Source: Saccostrea cucullata (Eukaryota). From it: a stretch of 64,000 nt of DNA. A program made the position numbers and the translations under genes. The notes under the pieces were generated by a model that had not been told where the DNA came from, did not search any database, and was given only the letters and a program-made list of their open reading frames with translations. The DNA is taken from positions 186,001-250,000 of the forward strand of contig NW_026926577.1 of the NCBI RefSeq assembly GCF_032062105.1, given 5' to 3'. Shown here in pieces: positions 32,701 to 62,986 of this stretch (the first letter of the stretch is position 1; every line of letters starts with the position of its first letter).

Positions 32701-35700
32701 ACAGTGGCAACCAAACCGGAGCAGGATGATGAGTTTGCTCATCTTCAAAAACCTCCCAGTGCTGTGGTAAACAAAGAGACCAAGCGTAGTGATAGTCTAT
32801 TTCAGAACCATTCGCTCAATACTAAACCTGCTCCTCCTTCTGTTGTGCAAAAACCGGAAATCAAGAAAAACCCTAATTCAGGATTTCTTAATTCATTTTT
32901 AAGCTTCATTCAAGGAAAAAAGCCGGAAACATTATCAAGTGTAAATACCTCAGTTGTGAAACGACCAGAACTGCCAAAATATATTCCAGAACCTCCGAGA
33001 CCGAAACCAGTGCAAAAAGCGGAGAGAAAATTCAGCAGTGATAGTGCTTCACCAAAGCCTGACACAAGTTCTATGTATTCTCCCTCCACTTCTCAAGCAT
33101 CTACATTTTCTGAGGAGGAGGATCTAGGAACTTCAAATGTCAGCAACAAGGTTCAGGGTATTGTGCAGCAGATCAAAGAGGATGGTAAGCCAAGTCTGAA
33201 AATGAAAATCAGTCTGGGCAGGGGGCAGGGGGGTCAGAGTGTCAAACACACAGTAGACCAACCAAAAGTGACTAAACGCAGAAACTCAAAAGCTACAAAA
33301 AAGAAACGCAAGGATGATTCAGATGATGCATATGTGATGTCATCAGGTGATGAGGTGGACTTTGATAATTCATTTGTAGAAAAGCCCCCATCTCCCTCAC
33401 TTCCTAAAAGGCAGCTGTCTTCTCGAAAAGCCAAGGAAAGGGCTCAACAGAAGAGTGAGTGTTCTATTTCAGAAAAAAAAACAAAATTTCTCCAAAATAT
33501 ATACTAGTATTATTTACCAAGAAATTTTATAGGGTTGACAAAGTTCATGAAAATAATTCAGGAAGATATTACGTTACACAGTGGCATGATGCTTGTTCCA
33601 TTCCAAAAATGACAATCAAGGATTTTCTAAACTTGACATTTTATAAAACAACCCTATCTTGACATAACCTTTGTCTTTGAATATTTTTTTTTCAATTTTC
33701 AGGTACATAGTTCACATGTAATAAAAGTGATTTTTTCAAAGGAATTTTAACACTTAATACATGTAATAATGTTAATGTCAACAATACATTTTATATCTCC
33801 TCTTTCTCAAATTTTGTTCTAGACTTCAAGTCCTGCTAATCTTTTGGATTCTTGTATTAATAATCACATTTTATGTTGCAGTTAATGTAAAACGTAGAAA
33901 TGTTTCATGTTGATATTAACCTGTTATTGACCTTACAGAGAAATACGTAGAATCAGATAGTGATGATGAGGTTATGGGCCCCATCGCTCCCTTCAGCAGG
34001 AAAACGCCCAATGATGAGGAAGCCTACGATTCTGACAGAGACCCAGACTGGGCACCCTTTGAAGTTGTAAGTGTTAATAATGTCATCTCTGAGTTTCAGA
34101 AAAAATCTGTTTGTCATCATAAATCTTATTTGTTGAGCATGTAGAGATTGGTTGGGTTTCAAATTTCAAGTATTGTAAATTGTCTCTGGTATCAATATTG
34201 AAATATTAAATGTAGTGTATATTCTAAAACCCGGATTTTACTGAAACGTAAAGTTACCTGCATTTTGTTTATAACACGTCCAATAAATCCAATGCTTTAC
34301 TTTAAAGATTATATCTCATCTCTTGTATCTCATTATCTCATTCTTTGATTTCAATACCATATATGTCAGGAGGTGTGGCTTGTATCTAAATTAGCTCAAG
34401 AATTAGCTAACGCCTAATAAAATCCAAAAAATAAACTCACTTTACAATTAAGTCAGCAAACATCATTTAAACAATTATGAATATCAACAGTTATAGATGA
34501 TTTTTTAAATACTTTTTAGGAAACTAAAAAGGAGCCTAAAGCAAAAGCACCAAGGGGAAGAAGGTAATTAATTAAACTTCTGGATACAAAATTCATTTAT
34601 TCAGTCTGCAAAAATAATTTGGTTTGTATTCAAACTGTTCAACAAGTGCAGCATTTTTTCCCCCAAATAAGAAATGTTATAAAAATTTAGTTCAATGTTA
34701 CAGAGTTTACTGGAAAAACAAGGTAAAGAGTGTCTTTCATGTGAAAAGATTGCAGCAATTTTAGTTGTTTTATTGAAGGCGACGCACCAATTCCAACAGA
34801 GCATCATTAGACGTGGAAAACGAGAATACTGATCTTAGCAAAAAGAAGGCCAAGGTGTTCACTCCGGTAGATAATAAACCAGTTGTACCACTTACCAAGC
34901 AAGAACCCAAGCCCCCAGAGTCTGTGTTCCCCCTACCAGTGTTCAGGGTAAGGTGGACCCGGGTCTTATACTACTACACTGAGTCACAGGTGTATTGATT
35001 GATAAATATTACTCTACTGTGCTGTGTAAGTTAAGATTTGGTGTAAAAAGGTGTTACACACCTATACTCTGATAATACCCTGGGTATCTAACATGAGGTC
35101 TACCAAAATGAATACAACTGTACCTCACATCACTTTATTTGAGTAGCTGTACATATATATAATAGGATGAAGTGTTTAAATTTGTACAGGATTGTTCCAA
35201 GTGTCTGTGTATGATTAAAACTATTTAATTGCAAAATATTAAATATTTCATAAATGAATACATTGTGATATTTCGTTGACTTGCATAACAAACTGGATTC
35301 TCAATTCATTTAAGGCTAAAATATCTCTAGGGATGCAACCAAAATGGGAGAGGATCGCACATTTTGGCCGTGGTTTGTGAGGAAATCCATGTAAAGTTAA
35401 GAGATGATTTATTTGATATATTGTAAAAGATCAAAAAAATCGCTTTACCTTTCAAGGAAATTTTCAAGCTTTGCATCTTACAGATAGGAGATTTTGTGAT
35501 GGCCAAAAATGACTTGAACAATTTTGAGCGTTTTCCTATCTGGAGGATAGACCCTGGTAAAATGATGAAGAAATATGAGTTATTTACTGACCGGGGGAAG
35601 ATACTTCACATGGCCACCTGTACAGTAAGTCAAAAATATTTCACCAAATAAAAAAACTCAGGACTTATTTATGGGTCTCTCCATAAGTAACAGTATTTAT

Positions 35701-39581: not shown

Positions 39582-40891
39582 TACATAGGACCAGCAGAGA
39601 TGGAAGAAAGGTGGTTCACAGTGTCAATCTAGTCACAGCTCAATGCAATTATAATGGGGACCAGCTGATCAACTGTCCAGTATACCAAACTTCAAAGACA
39701 TAGAAAGCGCAGTCTTTGTGCTTTCTATAAAAAATATTTTATGGTTGTAGAAGGATTTATATGTTTTGTTTGTTTCTGCGTTAGACGATTCTCTATTTAT
39801 TATGTAAATGTAACAGGTATAGTTAATTTAATCAGCTATAGTGCCATACCGGTATGTAATTCCATACAGTAGTCGCTAGTATTAAAATAATAATCAACTT
39901 GTAGTGCAATAGAGGGAATATTTATTAGCTCACCTTCTTTATTAAATTGGGCCAAGTAGGCTTACCCAGATTAAGGTGTATTCTTAATTACCTATATCGC
40001 ATACACCCTAGAAAGCTTTATTCTCTCCACTTTTAATCATCTTCAACTTCATTAGAATTCTGTCAGGGAATAAGCCAATCCTCCAAGCAATACAGTCCAA
40101 ACTGGGACTCCAAACTCCCTTTGACATGCATGTAATCATATGTTTTTCAATGGGAAATTGGTAATCTTGTTAGTACTATTTGGAGTGATGTTTTACAGTT
40201 TCTCTGCTAGGAACTCTGATTACCTTGACCTTGCTTTTTTGGTCTGACCATGAGATGTTGCTACATTAATTTTACAACAACAGAAATTTTCATTTGGGAA
40301 GGGTTCTAAACTTTGGATATCTACTTAATGCTAACAGATATTGAAAAATTTCTCTCTGTGAACTGGCTGAAAAAAAAAGCTGTAATTGATTGACATTAAT
40401 TTTCTACTGATATTAGCCTTAATAAAGTAAATAAATTCATGTAAACAGAACTCAGAGGTGAAGATGTTGCTTCAAACACTTATGGAGTCCATCTTGAAGA
40501 ACCATTTTTATGACTTGTTGCACTTAAAGAATCCTTTTATGGTTGCTGTAACTTTATTTATTCTTTGCTCAGTTTAGTTGCACATTCAGTTCATTTATAT
40601 ATGTGCTTTAAAAAGTGCTAAATCTTGCTTAAGGGAGCTTTGTGACTTTGTGAGGTATTGTCCTCTTTTAAGCAGATAAAGCTTTAGAATAAATGTGTAC
40701 ATGTACACATTTATCTGCAGTTATAAAAGCAATGCATTGAGAAAGAACTATATGTGGTATATTGCATATACTTGCCCCAACAAAAGTTACATTTTGAAAA
40801 CTTCATGAAATGTGCTGAATTCTATAAATTGTATGAGAAATATAAATTAACAGAACATATTATAGTTTCAAAGCAGCTTATTCACAATTTT

Positions 40892-41022
40892 TAGGTCACC
40901 TGAGTAAACTCAGGTGACCTATTGCTATCCGTTTTCGTCCGTCGTCGTGCGTCGTCCGTCGTCCGTCGTGCGCCGTGCGTTAACATTTCAACATTTTCAG
41001 CTTCTTCTCTGCAACCACTGAA

Positions 41023-41053
<31 letters not shown>

Positions 41054-41299
41054 TATGGGTGAAGGGGAACAAAAATTGTGAATTTCATGATCCCTGCCCC
41101 CCTGGGGCCTGAGGGGTGGGGCCAAAACCACTAAAATTAATGCAATCTTTAAAAATCTTCTTCTTTACTCCTGGACTTCAAGCAGTCAAACTGTTTGCAT
41201 GATTGTAATCAGCAATGAGTCCTCTACCAAAATTGTGAAATTCATGGCCCTGGGGTCAGGGGTTCAAGTGCTAGGGCGGGGCTCAATAAGTAGGTAGTG

Positions 41300-41333
<34 letters not shown>

Positions 41334-42974
41334 GCTCCTGGGTATTAAATAAACCAACTAAGTACATAGTTGTGATGAGCAAGAGTGCCTCTACCAAAAT
41401 TGTGAATTTTATGGCCCCAGGGTCAGGGGTTCTGGTGTTAGGGCGGGGCTCTATTGATTATATAGTGAAAATACATGAATTCTTTGAAAATCTTCTTCTC
41501 TGCTCCTGGGTATTAAATAAACTAACTAAGTACATAGTTATGATGAGCAAGAGTGCCTCTACCAAAATTGTGAATTTTATGGCCCCAGGGTCAGGGGTTC
41601 TTGTTTTAGGGTGGGGCTCTAATAGTGAAATGCATGAATTCTTTGAACATCTTATTCTTTGCTCCTGGTTAATATACTAATGACCTAATTACATATTTAA
41701 GGCCAGGATTTATTTTATTTTCAGTTTTACAAACCCTCCGCTCAAGGTTTTGAATTTTCAGAAAAAAAATAAAACAATTTTTTTCTTTCCGATGTCAAAT
41801 TTGAGTCGGGATCGAGATTTCAAATTTACGAACTCGCACTTCCGGTTTTAAGATGAAACGGCGGGTAAATAAACTTTAATTATAAAGCTAGATCTGAGCT
41901 TGGTTTAGTGTAAAATTCATCGATACGAGTGCCATTCAAAACGTTTCACCCGTTCAAAGGACAAATAAAATGCTGACGACTTTGCTGCACAATGACATGC
42001 TGGTGAGATAATTATGTATTCGTTTCAAAAGTATCTGTCTGTAAATAATTTTCCTCCCCCAGGTTTTAAACTGCCCGTGGGAGCTATTGCATATTGCCAG
42101 CGACATTGTTACAGTTTAGGTCTCTGTTATAGCTTACAGTCTAAGCATCATTCTTCAAAAAAGGGTTGCTTATGCATCAGATGTAATGAATAAAACTATG
42201 GGAGAAGTTAAGTCCATTTGAGGAAGAAATAAACAATAACCTGAAGAAATAAAAAAAATTCAACTATTAAAAGGCGGCAAGAATATACAAATATATACAG
42301 GCATGTAGTATCAATTATATCAGCCAGAAAAATTATTTTACAGTTAATTGAAAAAAATGTTCACCATACTTCCCAATACTCCCTGTCTGTTTTATGATAG
42401 GAATTATAATTTTAGGCATCAAGTAAATTTTAGAACATTGTCTACACATTCATCTAACACATATTTAAAAAATGAAGATAAATTGAAAGACTTTTAAAGA
42501 ATTGATTTTTTAAAATATATTTTGACCAACATCACAAAATTTATATAACTGGCCCAAGCTGGCATGAAATAAGCAATTAAATGTTCTACTTTCCTATTTG
42601 TAAGTATTATGTGTCCAGTTATAAGGAGCCTACTAGAATAGCATAAAAAAGAATGAACAAATGTTAATAATTGATTTATCAAAAATTCTCATGTTCATAA
42701 CTAAACCTAAACATAAAAAAAATGCTGGCCTTATAATGAAGAAAGGGGTCTCTTTCAAAATAGATAATTTCAGGGCTGCTGGGTCAGGGGTACCAGGGGG
42801 GTACTTTGACTAAAAATAAATTAATGCTTTGAAATCTGCCCTTTGATAAGCAATGGTGCCTCCTTCAAAATTTGTAAAATTCATGGCTTTTTGATTAAAA
42901 CACGAACCAAATACAATCACTGGAAAGTTGTTACATGATACTCAGGTGACCTATAAGGCCCGTGGGCCTCTTGT
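40892..42974 (+). mobile_element. Complete HINE-like element with ~167-bp internal repeats and a nested TIR element
   Basis: Has a 5' palindrome AGGTCACCTGAGTAAACTCAGGTGACCT, a (CGT/CGTC)n microsatellite, and a 3' end CTCAGGTGACCTATAAGGCCCGTGGGCCTCTTGT. Confidence 0.8.
41701..42730. mobile_element. Non-autonomous TIR element nested in the HINE-like element
   Basis: Inverted ends TAAGGCCAGGATTTATTTTAT ... ATAAAAAAAATGCTGGCCTTA, with TTAA/TTAT flanks. Confidence 0.5.
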
Positions 42975-43260: not shown

Positions 43261-44469
43261 TACGTACATATGATGCCATTACTTATGAAAATAATCAGTG
43301 CTTTGAAGTCAGCATATACTCCCCTGTTTAAGAACTTAATTAAATATATCTCCATCAAAGTTGGATTTGAGGGGCAAATATTGCTTATTACCGAATAAAG
43401 TTCTTTAGCAGGTACATGTACATTCTTGTTTAAATTAATTAGTTAAGATAATTCAGCTCCTTTTAGATGTAATGAACATTGAACATATTTAAAAACAAGC
43501 CATATTTTAACAAATTATTGTTAAATACATGTACCGGTATTGTCAGATGCAAGAACTTTGTTTTCGGAAGCAGACTTTGTGTAATTTTTATGTGAAAATA
43601 AAAGTTCTTGCATTGATTTACTAGAATATGTTAATAATAATTTCTGCAAACAAAGTTTGGGGGTGGGGGATATTCCTGTTTACCTGTGTATCTCTTTGTC
43701 TGATAATTTCTTGGGTTCCCCAAGGAACTTTTACCAAATGTTTGTTACTTTCTGTTTGGTAAAAAGGAGGGAAGGGGGAGGGGAGGGGGTTGATCCTATG
43801 GTCTGCAGATTAATTTCATCATTTATAAATTGCAAAAATTTGTTGTCTTTTTTCATTTTATGTTGTGACCCATTTTTATAAAGTAAGTGAATACTGCTCA
43901 ATATTTGCGTTTTTTGTTTAACATTGGTGTAATAAATATAATCATTGTCTTACTGATAAAATTCAGATATCTCATAATCCATTAAAATATGTTTTGTACA
44001 GGAGTATTGTTTGTTGATCACCTGTTTATGTGAGTGATTTCTATAAATATATGTAGAGAAATATTTAAATGTGTGACTTGTAACGATGCTTTAAACTGAA
44101 TACATGGTCAAAATAGTTGCATTTTTTTTACCCAGAGAATTGAATATGTGAATTATTTTCAGTTTGTTTTTCTTTTTAAGACTAGATATATTTTAATTTT
44201 TTAAGATTTATTTTATGTATAAAGTATGTTATGATGGTGATATCATTTATATTTGAACAGAGACTTATATATCATTCACATATGTTTATACGTCTCTATT
44301 TGAATGCCTTGGAAAATTAAATGATTAATGCACAGTGAGTGTATATTGAATTTTGCTTGTTTGATTATTTCAATGTACATTTCATAGTAGTCAACAAGTA
44401 GTGTTTGGTAAACACATGCTTATGCCTTACAGTGTATGACAGCTTAAATAACAAGGTTGAAGTTTCTCA

Positions 44470-45330
44470 AATGCAAGTTAAACTCTAGGGATGGGTATCG
44501 CCAAAAAATTTCGTATCGCGATATATTACGATTTTTTCCCACAATATCACGATCAAATCATGATATTTTTAAAAGCAGTTTTTACAATGATTTTATATGA
44601 AAAGTCATTATTTTCCTAAAAAATTTGCTTGAAAAACAAAATTTTATTTTCTTGAAATATTTATGTACATGTATATAAAATCAACTATGTTTGGACGATA
44701 AGATGCCGTTCTTTTCACGTTTTACAACATTTTTATACTTTCTGTAATTGTAATTTGAAAAGATTAAACGAATAAATGAATAATTTCTGGACTTTATAAT
44801 ATATACCTAAAAACGGTATTTAGGTCTCCATATCACGATACGTATCATGCATCAAAAAATCGCGATATACCGGTATACCGATAAAATCGCACATCCCTAT
44901 TAAACTCCATGGTCAAGGTCAAAAGGTCAAAATTGTTGATATCCAGAGGAAGGTTACACCTGTAATTACTGTTCAAATGTTATGGCCAAGGTTAAAGTTT
45001 TTTTAAGTGGGTCAATTAAGCTGTAAAATCAAGGTCAAAAGATCAAAAATATTTATACCCATCTTGTCACAATGAATACACATGTCAAGTATGAAAGCTC
45101 TATGAAAGGATAAAATTTTAAAAAAATTGTTAGAAGTGGGTCAAACTCCAAGGTCAAGATGTCAAATTTGGTGGTACCATAAGAAAGATATACACCTGTG
45201 AAATATGAAAGTCATAGCCCCATTCACTCAAAAGTTATGGCCAAGGTTAAAGTGTCTGCAGACAAGAAAACAGCTAGACAGACAGGGCAAAACTATAAAC
45301 CCCCTGAACCCTTGATTACGGGAGCATAAA
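44470..45330. repeat. Degenerate HINE-like fragment with GGTCAAGGTCA units (interrupted by the hAT MITE)
   Basis: Recurrent CAAGGTCAAAA / GTTATGGCCAAGGTTAAAG units, ending in a (GACA)n stretch and a short hairpin near 45300-45325. Confidence 0.45.
44486..44899. mobile_element. hAT-type MITE with 8-bp TSD
   Basis: TIRs TAGGGATG...CATCCCTA are flanked by the direct repeat TTAAACTC on both sides. Confidence 0.85.
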
Positions 45331-46002
45331 AAACAAATATCAAAGTCCAAACAAAACAAAATCCGGGGTTGGGGGTGCCATGATCATGGATTGATTATTT
45401 ATTTTCTTGTCCATTTGAGGACAGATTTTTTATTTTCAATATTATCGAGAGTAGATTATTTATTCCATCCACCATCCCCTTCAGATTCAAACAGGGTCCT
45501 CCCCTTAGTTCAAAAAGAGCACTTGTTCAGATGTCCTTATGTACTACAACCAAAATTACCATTTAAATATCTTACATTTTGACATGAAATATATTAATGA
45601 GTGGACAAATTGCTTTATAGAAGATTAGAAGTTAACGCAGCACAAACTGAAATCTAAGCCGACTATTTTATGAACGAGTTATTCAATGTAAAACGAAAGT
45701 GAAAGTAACGTTGTTGACACTCGCATCACGACGAATGTTTTTAGAATTTCATAAAGGAATATTAATTGAGGAAGAAATTTTGCGAGCACCGAACTGTTTG
45801 GAATGTATGTATATTACCTGTAAAATATTTGCCTGATGGACAGGATAGTTGAGTTACAGCTTTTACATTTTATGTTAATTATTTGTGTCTGTGTGTAACA
45901 TACGAGTACGCGAGTTTAATTGATCTTTTATGTGTTTTATCAGTTATCATATGACTCGTTGTCTTTTTGTTACAGTGTTTTAACAACTTCCAATTACGAC
46001 AC

Positions 46003-49000
46003 ATGGACCGGACTTTCTGTGGCCAGTTACTTCTGGTAGGGGAGGGGGATTTTTCCTTATCAGTATCTCTTCTGGACTGCCTACCTCAGACTTTGTGGGG
46101 AAATATCACGTCTACCAGTCTTGAGACAGAGTCAAGTATACTGAAACACAAGAGTGCATCAGATAACATAAAGTGGCTCACACAGCAAGGTGTGTACTGT
46201 GTACTTACATGGTTCAACATACCATTTAACATTTTAATCACTTGAGTTTAAACTTTTTACACTTGCTTTGTGCCAAGAATAAAACCATACATGCTGTTCA
46301 ACTATGAATTTGAAGCCTTGGCATTTTTTTGGACCTCTACCCTACATTTTTCATTAACTTTCAGTTTGTAATTTGTTTCAGATATCCTCTTCAAGTTCAA
46401 GATATTTTCACTTGACTTCTTTAAAAACTACAAATAGATGCTATACCTATATAAAATTAATATATTAATTTTTAAAAACAATTTTTACAGGTGTAAATGT
46501 GTATTTGAACACAGATGCTACTCACCTTATAAGCCAGGAAAAAATAAGAACTAAGAAATACAGTAGAATCATCTTCAATTTCCCACATGCGGGTGGTAAA
46601 TCAAACCACAAGAAAAACCGCAAGCTATTGAAAGATTTCATCTCCAGGTGTGTTGAAGTCCTCCTTAATCCTAATTTGTATTAATTTGATTTTAACATCT
46701 TCTTCTGTGAGATTTTAATCTGGAAATATTTCTTTTAAATTTTGCTAAAATTTTAAAAATAAAATAATTACATGTGTAACGGGAGAGGAGAAAATGCAGC
46801 GTACCAGACCGGGATTTGAACCTGGGCCCCCTGAAACTCCGGTCAGGTGCTCTACCAACTGAGCTATCTGGCCACCAGCAAATGAACCCGGCTGACCGCC
46901 ACATTCCTCTCTCCTTAAAGGTCTTTGGCCCTCCAAAGACCTTAACCCAGGCTCATTCCTGGCAGGTCTTTCACCTGTTAGTCCCTGGTGACATGGCACC
47001 AAATGTAACAGGAGAGGAGAAAATACAGCGGACCAGACCAGGATTTGAACCCGGGCCCCCTGAAACTCTTGTCAGGTGCTCTACCAACTGAGCTATCTGG
47101 CACGGGCGATCGAACCTGGCTGACCTCATGGAATTAAGTGGTGGCGTTTCCAAATGAGTAAAAAATTCTCAAGAGGGATGTTAGACAACATACATGTATA
47201 TGCAAATAAACTTTACACTCCAAGGGAGAAAATAAGGTGCACACCTTGAAAAAAATATTTAAATTTACTGTCACTAATAGAATTCACAAAGATTTTCGAG
47301 TTACAAGATTTTTTTTTATTTCTAGTGCTGTTGAAGTATTGGATGTTGGAGGTGAGATTTACGTTACTCTGTGTAAAGGACAGGGTGGGACTCCGGCAGA
47401 TAACCCCCGCAGAAAATGGCCTGACAGTTGGCAGGTGGTTGCCATGGCAGCTTGTGCTAATTTAGTCCTTCAAGAAATTGTTCCTTTTCATGCTGACAAA
47501 CATTCCGAGTACACATCTACAGGCTTTAGGTATGTATATTAGTATTCATGGGATTATTTTATTTAGTTAATTGGGCAATTAACTGACAAAATGCCTTTGT
47601 TAGACCTTTCCATAAAGTGTTCAACAGAATGTGTGAAGGGTAATTTTTGTGGTTCAAAATTTTTGCAGTGTGAACCTTCAAAAAAAAAAATCTGTTTTTC
47701 CTTTCATTATATTTGCAATGTCATTGATTTGAAATAGGGTACTTAAGAATTATTTTTTGTGTGATTTTGACTGAATGAAACTCTGCCCAAAATAGACAAC
47801 CTTAGAAATTACCCATTATGCAGTATTCATTTCAGTGAACATGCACATATCAATTTTAAACTTGTACCTTTCTGTTTGTGTTCAGGAGTCAAGACAAGGG
47901 ATTTAATACAGAGGGAGCTCTAACACACATCTTTGTTCGTACTGAACCCATCCCCATCCCAGACGGGAACATAATAGAGCACCACAAAATGACCTGTCCT
48001 TGTAATAAATATGTACAACAAAAAATATCAAGGTACTAGTTATTTGGTTTTTTAATTTAATTTCAAGATATGCATACCGTATAATATTTTATTAGCATAT
48101 AAATGTATCTTATAGATACACTACAATAATGCCTTTTTGAGACTTAAATATGCACTGCCAGGAAAATTTATGTCATGCTTAAAATTATGGCAAATCATAT
48201 GTTTACTACTCTTTGTTGTATACTCATCAAAAGAAATTAATTAAAAAAACAAACACCTAACAAACTATTGAAACTGACCATTATTTCTTAATTAGACAAC
48301 TGCACAGGGAAGATGGAAATCCAGTGTGTTATCTTTCACAAAAACTAGAAGAACTAAACAAGAAGATTAACTTCCAGATTGTTGAGGATGTCTGGGATCC
48401 TACAATAAGGAAACCCTCTTACTGTCAATGTCAGATTCCAGAAAACTGTAGTGAGGATGAACAGGAAGCAAAATTATCCACGTTAGGGGCACCACAACAG
48501 AATGGTCACCAGAGTTTCCCCGAGGAATTACTATTGGGGCATCCCACCTTATGTTCCCTCCAAAGACTTGTGGATGTTCCTGTTAAATTGGAGTGTCTCC
48601 CAGTTATGCATTATATGATTGGGTGTATTCCTTCACCTAGTGATTCAATGCTCTTTCAAAATGTAAATGAATTTTTAGGTGGTATATCCAATGGAACATG
48701 CAAAATTGAAATATCAGATACTCAAATTCATATAGAAACCCATTTTACTAATGAGAAAATCTCTCATGAAATAGGACATGTATTTTCTCATACAAAAGAT
48801 GACACAGTATATGACATATTCTCTTTGAATCTGGACAAATTAGCAGTTCTGTTGTTCCAACTGCCAAATATTCGATTACTGTGGTCAGTAGACAGTCGAG
48901 TTGTGGAGGTTTATCAGAGGATATTGAGTTCTGACCCCCCACTTCTCCTCCCAACCATAAGTCTCTATCCCCTCCTATTCTCCCATGATATCAGTTTCTG

Positions 49001-49247
49001 GGAGAACAGCCAGCTTCCATTCAATGAAGCTGATTTTTTATCTGTAATTCGAGAAGTTTGTGGAGATCTTGTCGTGTGTGTAGAACTCCTGGACAGATTC
49101 CACAGTGTAGAACTGAACAAAGTCAGTAGGTGCTATCGCTTGCAGTTCCAGGCTTATGACAGGGCTCTAAGTTACGAAACTTCCTGGAAAATCCAGAGTC
49201 ACCTCAGACTGTGTGTAGCCAGTGTAATGAAGGTGGAACTCAGGTGA
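46003..49247 (+). CDS. FDXACB1: Ferredoxin-fold anticodon-binding domain-containing protein 1, ~548 aa; exons 46003-46189, 46491-46647, 47326-47529, 47886-48032, 48296-49247
   Basis: The N-terminal DUF2431/Bmt5-like methyltransferase motifs are present: LLVGEGDFSLS, DAT, IIFNFPHAGGK, VTLCKGQGGTPAD, DSWQVVAMA, YTSTGFRSQDKGF. The C-terminus is FDX-ACB (HDISFW...VELLDRF...SRCYRLQFQ...VELR*). Exons total 1647 nt, in frame. Confidence 0.92.
46775..47128 (-). mobile_element. Miniature non-autonomous LTR retroelement (TRIM-like) with tRNA-like sequence in both LTRs
   Basis: Two ~125-129-bp direct repeats (47128-47004 and 46903-46775; TG...ACA) each contain an A box (TAGCTCAGTTGG) and a B box (GGTTCAAATCC). 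A PBS-like TGGTGCCATGTCACC follows the 5' LTR and a PPT (AAGGAGAGAGGAA) precedes the 3' LTR. Confidence 0.8.
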
Positions 49248-49375
49248 ACAAAGCTAGCAGGTGCTACCACCTGCAGTTCCAGGCTTATGACAGAGCTCTA
49301 AGTTTTGAAACTACTTCCTGGAAATTCCAGAGCCACCTTAGATTGTGAATATGTAATGAAAGTGGAACTCCGGTA
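49245..49375 (+). repeat. Tandem degenerate duplicate of the last ~135 nt of the FDXACB1 CDS
   Basis: TGAACAAAGCTAGCAGGTGCTACCACCTGCAGTTCCAGGCTTATGACAG...GTGGAACTC parallels 49114-49247. Confidence 0.85.
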
Positions 49376-49554
49376 GTAACTACCGGTACCTGAAAATGTA
49401 TGCAAGTAACCATGGAGGAAGAAATTCCCTATATGAGACTTATTTCAAATGTGCTTTTTAAAATTCATGTATGTTGCTGGGCATATAATAAATAAAGAGG
49501 TAAACACATTGTCTTGATGTGATTTTAAATCAAGTAGGTGAATCTTACAATTAA

Positions 49555-50124
49555 AGGACAAGATGGGTAACAGACGAATCTGGCCCCTTATTTGATATAA
49601 AAATCAGAACACTGGTAAAATTGTGATAGTTTGTAGTAAAGAAGTTAAAATGATGCTAACTTTAAGACAAGCACTAATTTTGATTCAAAGCTCACATGGA
49701 AGCCACTAGAGGGTGCAGAAATAGGACATTTTCCCGAATTTCCTCAATTCTGGTGGAATTTCATTATATTTGGGATACATTTCTCTTTGGAAAACATAGA
49801 GTACAAGCTTGCCTATCTGAGATTTTTACACATATACTGCATATCAGTGTATAAAATATATAAATTTGGTAGATAGGCAAGCGTGTGCTCTATGTTTTCC
49901 GAAAGAAAATGTGCTGTAAAATTAAAGAAAATTTGCATAAAATGAGAAATTTCGAAAATTGACCTATTTCCTGACCTCACTGTGACCCCTGTGTATTCTA
50001 AATCTTAAAACCAATACTCATTTTGTGGCAGGGGTGAAAACAGGTTTTCATAGATAAACTGTTGGATCATTCTGAAAGACACCCAAAATCGGGGGCCAAA
50101 TACTGGTCTTTCCCTATCTTGTCC
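49555..50124. mobile_element. MITE with AAAGGACAAGAT termini and an internal palindrome
   Basis: AAAGGACAAGATGGG ... CCCTATCTTGTCCTTT, plus an inner inverted pair GGAAAACATAGAGTACAAGCTTGCCTATCT / AGATAGGCAAGCGTGTGCTCTATGTTTTCC. Confidence 0.6.
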
Positions 50125-50242
50125 TTTTTTACAGTATTAGGCTTAAAGTAAGCCTTCTTTGATACCATAAAATACGGCCACTCATTCAGCCATCACAATG
50201 TAAAACATAATTTAGACACTGTATTATGAGTGAGGCAGTTAA

Positions 50243-50636
50243 GGGACTCCGACCCTCAGCCAGGAAGGACAACTCTTTAATTTATAATTTAATTCAAAAA
50301 GTCTTTAAATGAAGCTTGAAAATTAAATATTTTAATGCAACAATTTTCATTATATGCCTCTCAATGTGCTTCAAGGTTCTTTGCAAAGCTTCATAAATCA
50401 CTTCTAATTTCATATCATGTTAATAAATATTGGTATCTAAAAATGCTTTTTCAGGAAAAAAATTTCTACTTTTAATTAGACCTTTCTGAGAAGTTCAAAG
50501 ATCCTTGAAGCACATTGAGAAGCATATAATGAAAATTGTTGCATGAAAAGATTTAATTTTCAAGCTTCATTTAAAGACTTTTTGAATTAAATTATAAATT
50601 AAAGAGTTGTCCTTCCTAGCTGAGGGTCAGAGTCCC
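50243..50636. mobile_element. Fold-back MITE with TTAA TSD and ~140-bp TIRs
   Basis: TTAA|GGGACTCCGACCCTCAGCCAGGAAGGACAAC ... GTTGTCCTTCCTAGCTGAGGGTCAGAGTCCC|TTAA, with long near-perfect inverted arms. Confidence 0.85.
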
Positions 50637-50903
50637 TTAAGAATGATGGAATAAATTTTAACTGTTTTGAACAGTTTACGCTTTCCAAATTTGTAATTGT
50701 ACTCTTTCCATGTTTTACTGTGTTGCAAAATAAGTAAGGTTGTTTAAAACTGTATTTCTTTATTGGTTAACTAACATCAGTAACTAAATACCAGTAACAA
50801 AAACATTGTAAATTCATTCATTGCAAATTGAACTAAAAAGCATAATGATAAAACAATCAGCATCCTAAGAAGAGTTTTTGAATCCATTCTCACAACCAAA
50901 ATA

Positions 50904-53900
50904 CTACCTATTTGAAGTGAGATGCATATATTCGATGATATATTCAGGATAACACTGAGTACTGTCGAAGATTACGAATATACTGGGTTTATGTGGAGTA
51001 TTAACACAGGAATTGAATGGCCTCCCTTTGGGATCGGCGGGATCCTCCGGGGGTTTTCTCATTCCCGGTCGTCCCTGACCCGGTCGTCCAACCAAAACAC
51101 GGGCCACAAACATGTACTTGTGTTTCTCTCTCAGTATCTGTTTGATATCGGAGATCACTTTAGGCTTGTCTTGAGCTGTAGAGGATTTGGGTTTGCTGGA
51201 AGTTTGTGCAGGCTGGTCTGTTCCGAAGGGAGTTCCGTAAGTGATTGTGCCGAATCCAGTCTGACTTCCTATTCCACTGAGTGCATTTGGGTTTTGTGAG
51301 GCTCCACTGCTGCCAGAAGAGGGTTGTTGTTGTTGTCCTCCAGTTCCTTGTACTGTGATGAAATATATACTGTTTCCTACTCGCTTAGGAACGATTTGAG
51401 CAGAAGGAGGGGGAGCGACTGCATAACTAAAGTGAGCGGGAGGAGCCGCACCAAAACTGAATCCCAACGGTTGATAGGGGTTACTTGGGTTAACAAGCCG
51501 ACCAGTGAAGTGCTGGCAGTATCCATCTGAGTACTCTGCATGTTTAGCAAAATATGTTCCTGAAAACATACAGAAGACTAGGTTAAGGGAAAAGAAAAAG
51601 ATAATGCAATTTGATTTTGTCTTGAAGACCTAAAAGTTGGGAGTGGGAAATTTATTCATTCTAAAAAAGCAGTCTTATCTTTTGTAATGGGTAGTTGGGT
51701 ACATGTTTAAAATGACTGGAGTACACCTTTAGAAATCCACATCTTACCCTGTCCAAAGGCCACCCCATTTTCACCACACATCCTCCAGTCCAGACCAGAT
51801 CTACATATTGCCTCTATAGCCTCACACTTGGTGCCATGAAATAACTGCTGCTCATTTACCATATTGGGACCAAACTCCTCTGAAATATGCTTTCTAGCCC
51901 TACAAGCATAGACATATTTTGCAACACAAAACATACTTAAACAAGTTTCTTTCAGTGAGGAATTGAGTCACTAGGGTGACACACTGACTCCTTGATATAA
52001 TGAATTATAATTACAAATTAAGGACATACGCAACGTACCTTACCTACTGATAATTTTCCAATATATTCTAAATTTAAACTTATAATATCATTACATGTTC
52101 TCAGACAAAAAATCAGCATGCGTTACCAGGGGTTTTGAAAAGATATCGAATTTTGAAAATTTTCGCATTATTTAACTTTGATTCATGTTTTAAGCCAGAT
52201 GCTATGGCATTCACAATTTTGAAAGAGGCACCATTGATCATAACTATACATTTAGCAGTTGATTAGTTTGGTAACTTAATACCCATAGGCAGGGCAGAGG
52301 AACAAAAATGCATTTCAACTAATCAGTAATATTCAGCAATAATCAGTAATGCCCCTACCACACACGAACCCAGACCCTTAGGCCTAGATCCATACATTGC
52401 GAAATTTTTGAAAAGGCATCCTTGCTTTTCAAAAATATTTGATTAATACCAAGGAGCAGATTTCAAACAATTCATTCATTTTCAGCATATAAGTACAGCC
52501 TCCGCCCCCCCCTGCCTCTATGGTACCCCTGACCCTGGGGCCTTGACATTCACAATCCTGGAAGATTAGGGCCCTTGTTAATAACTATGCACTTAGTTAG
52601 TCTATTTAATAACCAGGGGCAGAGAAGAAGATTTTCAAAGAATTCATGTATTTTCACTATATAATCAATAGAGCCCCGCCCTAACACCATAAACCCTGAC
52701 CCTGGGGCCCTAAAATTCACAGTTTTGGTAGAGGCACTCATGCTCATCATAACTATGCACTTAGTTAGTTTATTTAATACCTAGGAGCAGAGAAGAAGAT
52801 TTTCAAAGAATTCATGTATTTTCACTATATAATCAATAGAGCCCTGCCCTAACACCAGAACCCCTGACCCTGGGGCCATAAAATTCAAAATTGTGGTAGA
52901 GGCACTGTTGCTCATCATATCTATGCACTTAATTAGTTGATTTAATACCTAGGAGCAGAGAAGAAGATTTTCAAAGAATTCATGTATTTTCACTATATAA
53001 TCAATAGAGCCCCGCCCTAACACCAGAACCCCTGACCCTGGGGCCATAAAATTTAAAATTGTGGTAGACGCACTCTTGCTCATCATATCTATGCACTTAG
53101 TTAGTTTATTTAATACCTAGGAGCAGAGAAGAAAGTTTCCTAAGAATTCATGTATTTTCACTATATAATCAATAGACCCCCCAACACCAGAACCCCTGAC
53201 CCTGGCACTATAAAATTCATAATTTTGGTAGAGGCATTCTTGCTCATCATAACTATGCACTTAGTTAGTCTATTTAATAACCAGGGGCAGAGAAGAAGAT
53301 TTTCAAAGAATTAATGTATTTTCACTATATAATTAATAGAGCCCCGCCCTAACACCAGAACCCCTGGCCCTGGGGCCATAAAATTCACAATTTTGGTAGA
53401 GGCACTCTTGCTCATCATAACTATGTACTTAGTTGGTTTATTTAATAACCAGGAGCAGAGAATAAGATTTTCATAGAAATAATGCATTTTCACTATATAC
53501 TTATTTAGCCCCGCCCTAGCACTAAAACCCCTGACCCCAGGGCCATGAATTTCACAATTTTGGTAGAGGACTCAATGCTGATTACAATCATGCAAACAGT
53601 TTGACTGCTTGATGTCCAGGAGTAAAGTAGAAGATTTTTAAAGATTGCATTAATTTTAGTGGTTTTGGCCCCACCCCTCAGGCCCCAGGGGGCAGGGATC
53701 ATGAAATTCACAATTTTTGTTCCCCTTCACCCATAGATGTTTTGTGCCAAATTTGGTTGAAATTGGTTGAGTGGTTGCAGAGGAGAAGCTGAAAATGTTC
53801 AAATGTTAACGCACAACGCACGACGATGGACGAAAACAGATAGCAATAGGTCACCTGAGTTTACTCAGGTGACCTAATAAAAATGTACAAAAATTACAAA

Positions 53901-56900
53901 ACATTAATTCCAGATATTTTTATCATCAAAAATTGTTTTAGAAGAGGTGTACAAATCCACATATGGAAATTTAAAATATTGCACACAAGTCCTTCATTTA
54001 GTGGAACTCTTCAACTCCAGGGAAGAGCCCATTAGAGTTCAAACTACGTTGCGTATGACCTTAAAGAAGTAAAATTACTGAATTTATCAACAGTTAGTTC
54101 TTCCTTGTATAAATAAAACTCATCCTATACTTACAGACTAAATTTTTGCCACAACCTTGGATTTTGAACTCTGTGTATGGATATAGGATGAATGTGACGC
54201 ATTGATGAACAAAATAAATCTTTAATCAGAGTAAACTCCCTTCCTTGTCTATCCAACTCAACCAAGATAAAATCCTAAAATTTCAAAATAATTTCTTGCT
54301 ATTAAAAATATACACAAAGTAGATTTTTAGAATCTTTTTGGCCGCTAGTTTTTAGATTAAATGGAAGTAAAACATAATTAATACATAATAAATGAAACAC
54401 TGAATTCAAGTTTGTAACAATGTGCACATTAAAATTTACATCTCCTTTTTACATGAAAATTTTAACATTTAAGTGAATTTACCAGTTATCAAATAAATAA
54501 TTAAACTAAAATTTTTATTTAACTATTCACAGTTAGCATTAGTATTCTCTGATATTTTGAACTTGGCAAACTTTGAAATGGCCAACTAATGAGACCCACC
54601 TGTTGTTCGTCTGGCATTGGATGCCAGTATCGGGGCAGTTCCAGATGTTCTTTACTCTCCTCCGACAAAGTCATGAAAGCAGTGCAAGATTTGTGGTCTT
54701 TCTCATTCCATAGCTTCTTACAGTATTTACAGCTTAACTGTAATAAAACATTTTATTTAAAGAACTGAAATCATATAACACACAAATGGTCCAATATTAG
54801 CTAGCCCCATACTGTTAGCAATTTATTATCTGATTATAGAACATTCTTTCTATGTATGCTGTATGCATTAGTAAGTGGGGCCCTGCAATGTTGTTAATGA
54901 GTGTGAATTTGGCTTTACTGCTATACATGTATACTTTAGCAACTTGATGGATGGGAATTCTTGAAATTTTAACATAAACACCTGTCCAGTGGACTTACTT
55001 TCACACAGTCTGGGTTGGGACATAAAAATTTCTTCAATCCGTGGTCAACAGCAACAGGAAACTCACAAAATGGACAGCTGAAGGGTAGAAATGTACCAGA
55101 AAATGATAATTGACCGATATACCAGAAAATGTACATTGAGCTGAATGAAGACAAGACTTAACTTATCCACTTAAATTTCTTAATATGAAATAGGTGAAAG
55201 TATTAACTTTTATTAATAATACAAACCATAGTGAAACTAGATATACCGTATAAAAGCATGTATATTAAATGAACTAAACCTATGGAAGCTGAAAAGGTAA
55301 ACATGCTCACTGACAGGAATATCTGTGTAGTGTACACATTTCAAACATATTACAAAACAGGTTTTAAACTTGCATGTACAACCCCTATATTTACATTTCC
55401 AATGTCTTTGTCCGAGATAAAATTACCAATTGTAAATGTAATTGATTTCCTCATGAATGTTTTGGCGCGGTTCCAAAAAAAACCACGTGCAGGGCGGGAC
55501 AACACCTAGAGAGAAGCAGGCTTGGAGCCCGTGGATTGGCGGAATCAAAGCATGTAAATATAAGGAATAACTGTCATATTTTTCGAATTCATGAAGATGA
55601 TCAATGGATTGGCTTGTGTGATAATTTTATGCATAAACGCCTTTGGCGTTTATGCAAATTATCACACAAGCCAATCCATTGATCACTTCATGAATTCGAA
55701 AAATATGACAGTTATTCCTTAATAAATGTATCTGGAGAGCCACACGTGAATCAATCTAATTAAATTAGATGTTAATAGATCCACTTTCATACTTGCTACA
55801 CTAACATCTAACAATATCCCATTGAGTTTCACGTCAGATGTCAAATTATATAAACCAATCAAATCATTGACTGCAAAATCTTTGTATATTTGATGAAGCG
55901 AATAAGTCTAGAGTTGTTCTGAATTTGACCTCGGACGTGATACTCTTTGGGATGTTGTTAGATGTTATTGTAGCAAGTATGCCAGCGGATCTAACATCTA
56001 ATTTTAATTAGATTGCACCTGAATAGTAAAAAAAACATAAATGTACACTGGGTAAGGAGCAAACCTGTGAAAATCCTCCATTTTTGTAATTGACTCCAAT
56101 GCCTTCTTGTTCACTTTTTCTTCCAAAAGTTCCATGATCAGTGGTGGTAATACTTTAGATGCCTGGCCTTCAAACAAAATGTTAATAACTCTTTACAAAT
56201 AAATCAGGTATTATTAACTCATTTTTTGGTAGTGTAATACATAGAGTGAAATATGAAAGTAAAATGATTAACTTACTTTCAGGAATGTATGTTTCACAAC
56301 CATTGATGGGACATGGAATCTGTGTCTAAAATGAAAAAAATACTGTTGAGTCTTCAGTGCTACTATTAATTATTTGTAAATTATTCAAAACATAAATCGT
56401 TTACAGACACACAATACAACAGTTTATCAAATCCTTATTAAATTTTGGTGAGTAATACAAAAATAGAATATGAATTGCAAACAGCCTATCATTACATGTT
56501 ACATGAATGTGGACATGCATGTAAAACTTTAAAAATGTTATTCCCTCCTTTCATCTACCAACTACCAACAGTCTACCAATACATTCACTGTCATGTTGCC
56601 AATCTTTTTAAAAATAATATTAAGTTTCTTTTTTGTTTTTTTTTTAAATCCTTCAAAAGGTATAATTATGGTAGCTACTGATCTTGCTAGCAAACCACAC
56701 TGATGGAGGTTGACAACTGTAGATTATACCAAGACAGAAGACCTGTAGTTTCCAATGTAAGAATCTGGACAATTATTTTTAATTTGTACCTCTTGACTGT
56801 CAGGGGAGATAACCTTCTTGACCTGCTTTTCGACACAGGATTTACAGACGAGATGATCGTTACAGCACTGACTGAGGAACGTCGTGTCGTGACTCTTGTT

Positions 56901-59052
56901 ACACCCATCACACTTTAGCTGGGAGGAGGACACCTCTATAACAGACAATAACATACAGTATTTTATTTACAAAATTATCAAAATACTTGAGTTTTATGAT
57001 TGAACTTGGTTGTAAAATTTCCAAAACTTCTGAATTAAATGCTTGATTATCTATATGTTTCTTTCTTCATTTACTGGTAAATTTATTAAGGAGAAAAAAT
57101 ATTTTGGAGATATGCGTCTTTTCATACTCCATACTTGCCTGCAAAGCTGACAGGGTGTTTCTCTGTTGTTGCATTTAACAATATGACATCACTGTCTGAA
57201 GAATAACTATAATTATTGTCAACACAGCCATCCATTTCCATCATATTAACATCAGATTGACAAGGAGATACCTGTTAAAAACATACATGTGTAGTTCTTG
57301 TAATAATGAAGACATAAGATGAAGCTTCATTTTCTATCTCAACTTTTGATTATGCTATTATACCATTGCATGCAGTTTTTATGAGTGCAGGTGAATGAAA
57401 TTTTCTTACCCAAACATGGTTTTCACAACAACAAAAAATCTTCAATATAAATATTAGCATTTTTATTATCTCCTGTAATTCTTTTTCTCTTACTGTAAGA
57501 TGTGAAAGCAAAATGCAAATGTAAGTAAATTAGGGATGTCAAATCGGTCAATTTTTAATACTTGGTTACTCGGACGATTTTCCGATCGAGTACCCGGGTA
57601 CTCGGTAAAAGTGTAAATAAATATGAACAAGTAAATTGATGAATATAAAACATTGTAAACTCTTGTAGAAATAAAACCACATACTCTGATAGGAGGTTTA
57701 CCCATTAGTGTATTTCTTTTGTAACAACGATGAGCACTTCCTGCCCGATGAAATTTGATATTACATCGTTTATGTTCAATTTATTTATCAGATAAACACA
57801 AGAAATAAAATCATAAGTGGTTCAGAGATTTTTTGTTTTAAAAAATAATCTGCTCCGTATATTGTAATGTAACTCTTTGTTGCATTTGACGTCCAGGTAT
57901 CAGTCGTACAGTTTGACTTGAAGTTGATCAAGTTCGCCTAACAGAGCGGATTTACGGTTTTAGTACACATTTCGATCATAGATTTTCTATGGGACGGTAT
58001 TTCGTAGTTTGGTGCAATGATGGCCATCAGTTTTTTTAAGCCTTTGGCTTCAACCATTTGTATTGGCAGGTAATCAAACACAACCATATCAACAATCGTG
58101 CGGGCAATATCATCTGACTCTTTTCTCGAGAATTTTTAAGGCTTCTTGCGGAATCCACAAGATTGTCAAATTTATTTAATCATAATAGACCTTAAACGAT
58201 GTTCAGTGAAAACAAATAATTAAAATTAATCAAAAAATAAGGATAGAAGACAGCCAATGGTGAGAAAAGCCAGGTAACAGGTACTTGGTCACAATAATTA
58301 CTGTATAAACACTGCCACTGGCGATAACGGTCATTTAGAGGAGTGGGAAACCCTAATTACTGTATGTACAAGTGTAATGAGTATTTTACGTTTTAAAACA
58401 GATTGTTTGATGCACTAAGAAATAAGCTTAGAAATATTAAACAAGAGGCCCACGGGCCTTATAGGTCACCTGAGTATTGTGTAACAACTTTCAAACAATT
58501 AAATTTGGTTCGTGTTTAAACCGGAGGCCATGAAATTCACAATTTACAATTTTGAAAGAGGCACCATTGCTTATCATAATTATTAACTTAGCATGCTTAC
58601 TCTATTTACTTAATACCCAGAGGTAGATCAGAGAAACAAAGAGACTTTATAACCAGTTGTGCACCTCACCCCAAAGGAACTACTGACCCAGGGCCATATA
58701 TTTCAAAATTTTGCAAATTTTATCATAAAATGGTTGATTAATACCAAAGAGCAGATTTCAAAGCATTAATTCATTTTCAGGCTATGTAACCCCCCCCCCC
58801 CCTTTGACCCTGGGGGCATTAAAAACCACTTTGCTAGATGCACCTTTCTTCATCATAAATATATATATACTTGGATCATTGGCTTAAAACCCAGAAGCGA
58901 AGAAAAATATTTACAAAGAATAAATGTATTTTTACTATATAATCAATACAGCCCTGACTTAACACCAGAATCCATAAAATTCACAATTTTGGAAGAGGCG
59001 CTCTTGCTCATCATAACTATGTGCTTAGTTAGTTAATCTAATACCCAGGAGC

Positions 59053-59086
<34 letters not shown>

Positions 59087-59221
59087 CACTATATAATCTA
59101 TAGAGCCCCGCCCTAACACCAGAACCCCTGGCCCTGGGGCCATAAAATTCATAATTTTGGAAGAGGCACTTTTACTAAGCATAACTATGTACTTAGTTAG
59201 TTTATTTAATTCCCAGGGGGC

Positions 59222-59255
<34 letters not shown>

Positions 59256-59389
59256 CACTATATTGTCTATAGAGTCCCGCCCTAACGCCAGAACCCCTGA
59301 CCCTGGGGCCATAAAATTCACAAATCTGGAAGAGGCACTCTTGCTCATCATAACTATGTGCTTAGTTAGTTAATCTAATACCCAGGAGC

Positions 59390-59423
<34 letters not shown>

Positions 59424-61640: not shown

Positions 61641-62600
61641 CTCCAACTGAATGTCTCTGAAAAGAATATACATTTTTTTAAAAATAAAATTTAAAATAAA
61701 TATCCGATAACCAGTAGACAAACTAGAAAATATCAGCAAGGGCCCCGCCATGGGGTAGAGTACATAAACAATTAGAATAAAGCAACAGCAACATGTATTT
61801 TAACCCCTATTCTTAAAATTTCAACATAATTCCTGAATATTCAAAAACCTGAAAATAATATTCTTGTATTTACATTAGGCTTTACAATTATGAATCAATA
61901 TTCAAATATCATGAAAATTCTAGGCTACGTGAGTATTAATGATGGGGTTCAAACAAAAATAAATTATAAAAATTTATATTTAAATCCACAATTGGTCATA
62001 TAGTGAAAATACATGTACATTAATAATTTTCAAATGTATATCCGACAACCAGTAGACAAATTAAGTGCATGGATGTCATGAGCAAGAATCTACCCCACCA
62101 CCCCAGCTCCAAACTAGAAGACATACAGAATCAAACTTAGCATCAAAATATGTCTTTCTGCCTATTAAACTACCATACCAAATTTAAACTTGATTGGGCA
62201 ACCATAAAAAAAGTTATTAGAAAAAAACAGAAAATTTGTGGACGGAAGAGTGACAGACGGACAGACAGACAGACAGACAGACGGACGGACGGACGGACAG
62301 ACAGAGTGATTTAGGGCACCCGCAAAGAATCAGAATTGTTGAATACATTGCACCAGGTTACAGGTACTTATTTAATCCTCCTTTCCTTCTCCAAAAATTA
62401 TTCTTCCATCACATATTTACAATGGATTCCATATGGAAAATCAATAAAAAAAATGTAGAATAAATTTGATTAAACAAATTATACCAGCTGGTATTATAAA
62501 AAAGATTTTGCTCTGTGTTCCTTTGAAATTTTTTGACTCATGACTAGATGCCACCATTTACAGTTGGATTGTGAGCCTATTTTTATTCAGCAATTTTTAC

Positions 62601-62879
62601 TAGCATTGGTCAGTCAACTACCTTTTACTCCTTAATTCTAAGACACATTCTTTAGCCAAAATGTATATTTTATCCACCTCCCAAACATTTATAGTTGTCT
62701 CTACAGGCAATAAACTTCCTTGAAGTGAATTTTCAGCAACCTAACAAATAATTTTAATTAAGCGAGTTTATCACTTGTAGAGGCGACTATAAAGGGTTGG
62801 AAGAAAGATAAAATATACAGATTAGTCAAATAATGTGCCTAGGATTAGGGAGTGAAAGGTAGTTGACTGACCAATGCTA
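62601..62879. repeat. Inverted repeat pair (MITE-like)
   Basis: TAGCATTGGTCAGTCAACTACCTTT ... AAAGGTAGTTGACTGACCAATGCTA. Confidence 0.55.
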
Positions 62880-62986
62880 GAAAGTGGTGATATTCTCCCC
62901 AAAAGTGCGCAAAAAATATTGCGCCGTAATTTGCACCTTTTTTGCATTACAGGATCTGTAGCGTTATGGTCAAAGACAAATATAAA

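Follow-up and report, generated by a model that had tools for sequence, protein, structure and literature searches.

Positions 46775-47126 of the window (the whole stretch of 64,000 nucleotides from Saccostrea cucullata analysed here) hold, on the minus strand, a miniature LTR element made up of an LTR, a tRNA-His primer-binding site (PBS), a 100-bp internal region, a polypurine tract (PPT) and a second LTR. With high confidence we assign it to Helenus-1_SaGl, as a copy that has decayed slightly. Its RNA is likely a Pol III transcript driven by the tRNA-like boxes of the LTR, and the proteins of a Gypsy element primed by tRNA-His likely carry out its copying and integration. A first-pass annotation of the window had read it as a non-autonomous retroelement (TRIM) of the order LTR–PBS–internal stem–PPT–LTR, and all of these parts were found in the sequence (Table 1). 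The extent of 46775 to 47128 given there stands at the 3′ LTR end but not at the other, where the LTR starts at 47126 and the TG at 47128 is part of the CATG outside it.

Table 1. Features of the Helenus-1_SaGl copy and of its host intron, in window positions
Feature	Position	Strand	Basis or remark
Intron of the FDXACB1-like host gene, second in the coding sequence counted from the ATG at 46003	46648-47325	+	GT at 46648, AG at 47324-47325; frame open across the junction
5′ LTR, 5 end bases missing	47004-47126	-	Alignment with a young-copy LTR (L004)
Cloverleaf of 5′ LTR, tRNA-like (A box, B box, 8-nt anticodon loop, no CCA)	47029-47101	-	ARAGORN 47028-47103; Rfam RF00005, 45.8 bits
TTTT 3′ of 5′ LTR cloverleaf, predicted Pol III terminator	47020-47023	-	Putative function; full-length RNA must read past it
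tRNA-His PBS, 9/10 matches (one CpG-type change)	46992-47001	-	tRNA-His genes of own genome
Internal region, 100 bp	47003-46904	-	Sequence
Second tRNA-His-complementary site, candidate half of a split primer site	46944-46954	-	Would pair with tRNA-His gene positions 45-55 (variable loop, T-arm), 11 nt
11-bp hairpin immediately 5′ of PPT, perfect in window copy	46918-46943	-	Fold and alignment
PPT	46904-46917	-	0/300 variant cells in 20 other copies
3′ LTR, 129 bp, ends TGT...ACA intact	46775-46903	-	122/129 identical to L004 LTR
Cloverleaf of 3′ LTR	46873-46801	-	ARAGORN, Rfam RF00005
TTTT of 3′ LTR	46794-46791	-	Sequence
CATG target site adjoining intact end	46771-46774	.	Found in empty allele of organism B
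CATG adjoining eroded end: target duplicate, or host's second CATG moved up by a small deletion	47127-47130	.	Empty allele carries CATG twice, 7 bases apart

The window copy measures 352 bp, compared with 361 bp in young copies. Its 5′ LTR is followed on the minus strand by TT and TGGTGCCATG, and the alignment of this LTR to that of L004 (123 columns) contains five CpG transitions, four other changes and six gaps; between the two LTRs of the window copy identity is 88.6% over 123 columns and 93% over a 98-nt core. In young copies the same 11-bp hairpin is formed by nine Watson–Crick and two G–U pairs. With two LTRs, a size below ~1.3 kb and longest stop-free frames of 103-108 aa, the element has the predicted size and coding capacity of a TRIM.

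Each LTR carries the tRNA-like cloverleaf with A and B boxes and 8-nt anticodon loop that had been proposed: ARAGORN reports both as tRNA-??? with a 4-base anticodon, Rfam RF00005 scores them at 45.8 and 44.0 bits against a gathering score of 29, and the 8-nt loop is visible when a young copy is folded. Two tRNA-like calls, and the 52/73 identity of the LTR cloverleaf to a tRNA-Lys gene of its own genome, might also be expected of two neighbouring tRNA-derived SINEs or tRNA pseudogenes, or of a local tRNA gene duplication; however, the LTR–PBS–internal–PPT–LTR order is fixed in 29 other loci, the TGT...ACA ends and 4-bp target-site duplications (TSDs) enclose the two-LTR unit with no tails, the anticodon has four bases and the site is empty in a related organism, B, which leaves such an origin with next to no probability. 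SINE-like tails and a single-copy tRNA duplication were also what the first-pass annotation had named as speaking against its own reading, and neither was encountered. Its warning of tRNA mis-annotation was justified, both ARAGORN calls in the window (2/2) being false, which is the practical effect of Helenus. Within the LTR, the U3-like part of 30 bp (46873-46897) has a second B-box-like word and is 68% like the T-arm of the cloverleaf.

Three other classes were discarded. SINE2 was rejected on the presence of the LTR–PBS–PPT order and the absence of 3′ tails. Ajax and Cassandra were set aside as no 5S-derived LTR sequence was detected by Rfam, which returned no 5S match in 44000-50000 and, over the element, matched tRNA only in a scan to E = 1. 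A retrozyme was rejected likewise, Rfam giving no hammerhead ribozyme match in the LTR to E = 1.

Kojima 2024 named the tRNA-bearing TRIMs Helenus (TRIMp3) and the 5S-bearing ones Ajax (PMC10886601), so that the earlier naming of tRNA-bearing analogues as Ajax was mistaken. Data S1 of that paper includes Helenus-1_SaGl, from Saccostrea glomerata, and in a by-eye comparison the 3′ LTR and internal region of L004 agree with its Helenus-1_SaGl-LTR and -I entries letter for letter; Table S1 gives an LTR of 129 bp, an internal region of 103 bp, a total of 361 bp and a TSD of 4 bp (PMC10886601). The young copies found here share the 129/103/361 dimensions, the 4-bp TSD and the tRNA-His PBS, whereas the window copy is 8% diverged, has lost 5 nt at the 5′ end and has an altered PBS-proximal segment. 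By sequence comparison the window element is a slightly decayed copy of an already published family, and the novelty implied by the first-pass annotation falls away, the exact family being present in Data S1 and Table S1. The structural features that define Helenus were found, namely an A/B-box tRNA sequence in each LTR, a host tRNA PBS with a PPT and no coding capacity, and the 4-bp TSD is present at 21/25 other sites and ambiguous at the window copy. Ajax and Cassandra resemble it in being non-coding TRIMs, in forming tandem arrays and in having Pol III-type small-RNA sequence in both LTRs, but carry 5S rRNA sequence where Helenus has tRNA (PMC10886601); Ajax further differs in being nemertean, Leu-primed and flanked by a 5-bp TSD (PMC10886601). 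The biv-TRIMs are likewise bivalve TRIMs that occur as solo repeats and tandem arrays and have a hairpin in the internal domain, but are a separate family with 202-218-bp repeats, a 77-80-bp internal domain and no clear PBS as described (PMC6934838).

The host gene is identified by three exons matching BMT5-like PF10354 (profile positions 1-54, 62-115 and 114-167) and a last exon matching FDX-ACB PF03147; these and the GT and AG ends of the intron confirm the annotated placement, antisense within the second coding intron of FDXACB1. Twenty sequencing runs contain part of the stretch, with word shares ≤0.23, and reads of runs X21, X1, X2 and X3 were mapped to it. A contig of organism B (runs X2 and X3) spans the orthologous intron without the element, an empty site that, coming from one sample, may be a species difference or a polymorphism; the intron itself is ~94% identical in B, differing by ~6% (18/309 and 32/588 letters). 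In organism A (run X21) one single read covers the empty site, too few to count. CATG does flank both sides, as had been noticed, but its status as a TSD is ambiguous because the empty allele of organism B carries two CATG 7 bases apart, and the one at the eroded end may perhaps be the host's second CATG instead of a true duplicate. An age estimate from the LTR divergence (~11%) was discarded: the figure overstates age because 10/16 LTR substitutions relative to the young copy are CpG transitions, and the intron is only ~6% different from organism B. The window copy would be passive intronic cargo with one LTR end lost, for which the host gene would have no need. An unrelated short repeat of very high read depth (47136-47194) adjoins the element in the same intron.

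The genome-wide copy search that had been proposed as a check showed the element to be multi-copy. A DNA search of its own genome gave 1398 first-look candidates, 40 of them scored; 30 loci were fetched and, less the window copy (L001) and the duplicates L003, L013, L026 and L029, represent 25 distinct other sites. LTR–internal–LTR order is present in all 29 other fetched loci. Perfect 4-bp TSDs, comprising 18 different 4-mers, flank 21 of the 25 sites and show that integration produces 4-bp target duplications; the four exceptions are L005 (truncated), L019 and L020 (3/4 bases) and L030 (an interrupted array). Four copies among the 25 sites have identical LTR pairs, and tandem arrays occur at five sites. 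The exact 22-nt LTR–PBS junction occurs 107 times in the genome, compared with 0 for the reversed control, a lower bound in which some sites are present twice in the assembly. The window copy is 328/357 identical (92%) to L004. Outside CpG sites, in 21 copies whose selection by similarity to the window copy biases such figures, variation within the LTR is lowest in the A and B boxes (3/504 and 0/294 variant cells, compared with 12/840 in the U3-like part), and the T4 run, with 4/168, is no better conserved than its surroundings. Mixed arrays, some inverted, of Helenus-1 and a sister LTR ~80% alike (Helenus-2 type) were seen at L005/L003 (C2442), L018, L049 and L102.

The tRNA-His primer named in the first-pass annotation is borne out by tRNA-His genes of the same genome, which match the PBS at 10/10 nt in young copies and 9/10 in the window copy, and by a junction census of all 72 genome matches to TTACA-N0-8-TTGGTGCCGTGACCAGG (LTR end, then 16 nt of tRNA-His complement). 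Host tRNA-His is shown, in the form of DNA footprints, to be the primer of Helenus-1, because 19 Helenus-1 junctions in the census carry 16-19 nt of exact tRNA-His complement instead of the usual 10. At these junctions the tRNA complement substitutes part of the internal region and rejoins it at several different points, and by its sequence it is a trace left by plus-strand copying of the primer tRNA. Such copying normally halts after 18 nt at m1A58. In L046, L073 and L101, which are sister or hybrid copies, the junction has 33-39 nt of tRNA-His complement, and these lengths beyond the usual 18-nt stop may represent read-through on an unmodified primer. A tRNA-like unit adjoining the primer site could suggest that the LTR cloverleaf is the element's own primer, yet the complement of the cloverleaf 3′ end does not match the PBS, host tRNA-His does, and the extended junctions agree with host tRNA-His over as much as 39 nt; self-priming is thus hardly conceivable, and was negative in Kojima 2024 as well (PMC10886601). 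A tandem tRNA cluster, Lys-Thr-Met with a ~1.27-kb period, was seen at L112 and L113 (C2564).

A second candidate pairing site for this primer lies ~40 nt 3′ of the PBS, where in young copies a 12-nt stretch complements tRNA-His gene positions 44-55 with one G–U pair. The site was spotted first and then tested, and in these post hoc tests dinucleotide shuffles reached the observed length in 0/200 cases each for the young copy, the window copy (11 nt) and Helenus-2 (13 nt). In two Gypsy families discussed below, A and B, the final 250 bp of the LTR hold a match to the same tRNA-His segment: 12 nt in family B (0/200 shuffles), 10 nt in a second family-B copy (4/200) and 10 nt in family A (11/200), with 25/25 family-A junctions keeping the match 91-94 nt upstream. 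Control matches were 5-7 nt for tRNA-Lys (6 nt on the young copy) and 8-9 nt for the element's own cloverleaf. Among the young copies the site has 5/240 variant cells, a conservation no higher than that of its neighbours, and the Helenus-1 match shrinks to 7 nt when another variant of the tRNA-His gene is used.

Comparison by eye with the families of Data S1 extends this pattern. Among the 15 His-primed bivalve families (Fig. S2C, PMC10886601), six match the segment at 12/12, two have one wobble, four have one mismatch and three match more weakly; many of the Lys-primed families carry ACCCAC(G) a few bases 3′ of the PBS, which is the complement of the corresponding tRNA-Lys segment of the genome analysed here, and the Ile-primed Helenus-5_SaGl retains part of the second site. 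This apparent variation with the primer tRNA across bivalve families suggests a split primer site. The arrangement is not general, because the His-primed Helenus of fish, with an 18-nt PBS, are without the motif (0 hits for the expected sequence in the supplement, PMC10886601), and the second site was rejected for those families.

We lean slightly towards a reading in which bivalve Helenus would hijack their helper via a split primer site, consisting of a 10-nt PBS and a T-arm-pairing segment that switches with the primer (His or Lys complement), with His-primed Gypsy carrying the same segment in the LTR upstream of the PBS. HIV-1 has, besides its short acceptor-stem PBS, a primer activation signal that pairs separately with the T-arm of the primer. 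Bipartite primer-binding sites are also known in yeast Ty1 and Ty3, which have in common with the oyster arrangement a short acceptor-stem PBS and a separate T-arm-pairing segment (PMC5371799). The Helenus segments differ from those of Ty1, Ty3 and HIV-1 in lying both within the 100-nt internal region, ~40 nt apart, with a pairing predicted from sequence.

A likely autonomous partner sharing PBS and PPT, for which the first-pass annotation had suggested looking, was found in the His-primed Gypsy family A, which has a 1230-bp LTR and encodes PR-RT-RNaseH-IN in the Gypsy order. Kojima 2024 had inferred a Gypsy helper, Gypsy-39_CGi, from PBS similarity alone (PMC10886601). Families A and B have PPT and LTR-end words in common with Helenus and both make 4-bp TSDs; family A also has the same PBS, and its PPT is 15/16 identical to that of the young Helenus copy. 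With the shared PBS, PPT, LTR end and a 9-nt second-site word set aside, further internal similarity between Helenus-1 and Gypsy A or B was limited to scattered 9-13-nt words with E above 1, and the hairpins are not in common.

The 72 census junctions include 21 native to family A, 4 native to family B and 7 Helenus/family-A hybrids; 15/72 have one side without family attribution, and the pattern, which requires the LTR end TTACA, misses His-primed helpers with other LTR ends. In the hybrids a Helenus LTR is joined to a family-A internal region, or the reverse, precisely at the PBS. The seven rows represent five independent sites, three of which involve Helenus-1 (L042 = L068, L085 and L102) and two its sister Helenus-2. 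A TSD encloses the whole hybrid at three of the five (CAAT at L101, CATT at L102, TTAT at L050 = L088), the only Helenus-1 hybrid among these being the internally rearranged L102. At L069 and L100, Helenus-2 LTRs flank a Helenus-1 internal region and TSDs are present.

Because the TSD spans the whole hybrid, we infer that the hybrid predates integration, and read it as the product of co-packaging and strand transfer at the common PBS. Hybrids arising by DNA recombination of integrated copies, or by misassembly, would leave the helper unnamed, and there is some ground for this in a repeat-rich draft of 23869 contigs, in the two sites of five that have no spanning TSD and in the rearrangement of L102. 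The 4-bp TSDs around whole hybrids at the other three sites, the 38 nt of tRNA-His complement at the L101 junction, as expected from reverse transcription, and the occurrence of two hybrids each on two contigs with allele-like surroundings (98.2% and 99.6% identical) nevertheless make this account unlikely. On the evidence of the hybrid junctions, one His-primed Gypsy family, A, likely supplies the Helenus enzymes; the absence of family-B hybrids in the census comes from 4 native B junctions only, and family B may be a helper too.

How the dependence of TRIMs on an autonomous partner is maintained is listed as not known (PMC10886601), and for oyster Helenus the PBS-joined hybrids, together with the second site, provide an answer that is concrete and can be tested. 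Neither is described in the main text and the parts of the supplement of Kojima 2024 covered here (PMC10886601), nor in the Helenus passages of a meeting report (PMC12859917), and the open literature listed on co-packaging and chimeras has nothing on Helenus helpers. Relative to that portion of Kojima 2024, the new elements are thus the PBS-joined Helenus/Gypsy hybrids and the second tRNA-His-pairing site, which are modest mechanistic leads. If true, the split-site reading and the hybrids would give a named helper and a minimal 100-nt set of cis-signals for a Pol III-type TRIM, a point listed as unknown in Kojima 2024 (PMC10886601), and an LTR-to-PBS junction census sorted by flanking sides could be used to seek the helper of Cassandra. 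At L043 and L063 (C4640, ~2240-3100) a Helenus-1 LTR and PBS lead straight into an integrase-like frame that neither Pfam nor blastn against Gypsy A and B matched, and the locus may be a hybrid that involves a third element.

In the life cycle that we propose, Pol III would start at the 5′ cloverleaf and most transcripts would end at the TTTT ~80 nt on, with rarer read-through to the TTTT of the 3′ LTR yielding a terminally redundant RNA of ~315 nt that could serve as template; a leaky terminator giving a short tRNA-like RNA and the ~315-nt RNA is the simplest model. The Helenus RNA would be packaged together with Gypsy RNA, as the hybrid copies suggest, tRNA-His primes, the second 12-nt site may pair with its T-arm, and integration produces the 4-bp target duplications. 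For the transcription step there is a rival account, in which the RNA is a Pol II product, arising from a weak promoter in the LTR or by read-through from the host, and the tRNA portion acts as a passenger or structural signal. The TTTT after each cloverleaf would halt most Pol III ahead of the primer site, and Kojima 2024 itself states that the Pol III function of Helenus is not validated (PMC10886601); against this, the A and B boxes vary least among LTR parts outside CpG sites, the element has only two T4 runs, one per LTR and each after the cloverleaf, and the U3-like part is just ~30 bp. On balance a Pol II origin seems improbable, and Pol III transcription is the reading that we prefer, although the first-pass term "Pol III-driven" was too strong for a promoter that is putative both here and in Kojima 2024 (PMC10886601).

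Several other features of the window lie outside the element. Tandem repeat arrays with a period of ~165-170 bp occur inside dispersed elements at 22316-23454, 40888-41699, 52172-53880 and 58440-59812, and resemble the oyster satellite carried by Helitron-like elements; further arrays, with periods of ~118-156 bp, occupy 15145-18577. Long palindromic MITE-like elements are present at 49718-49970, 50239-50640, 55561-55721, 55752-56015 and 62597-62883, the first of which gives sub-threshold Rfam miRNA hits. A single open frame of 908 aa at 30781-33504 (+) starts with a signal-peptide-like stretch.
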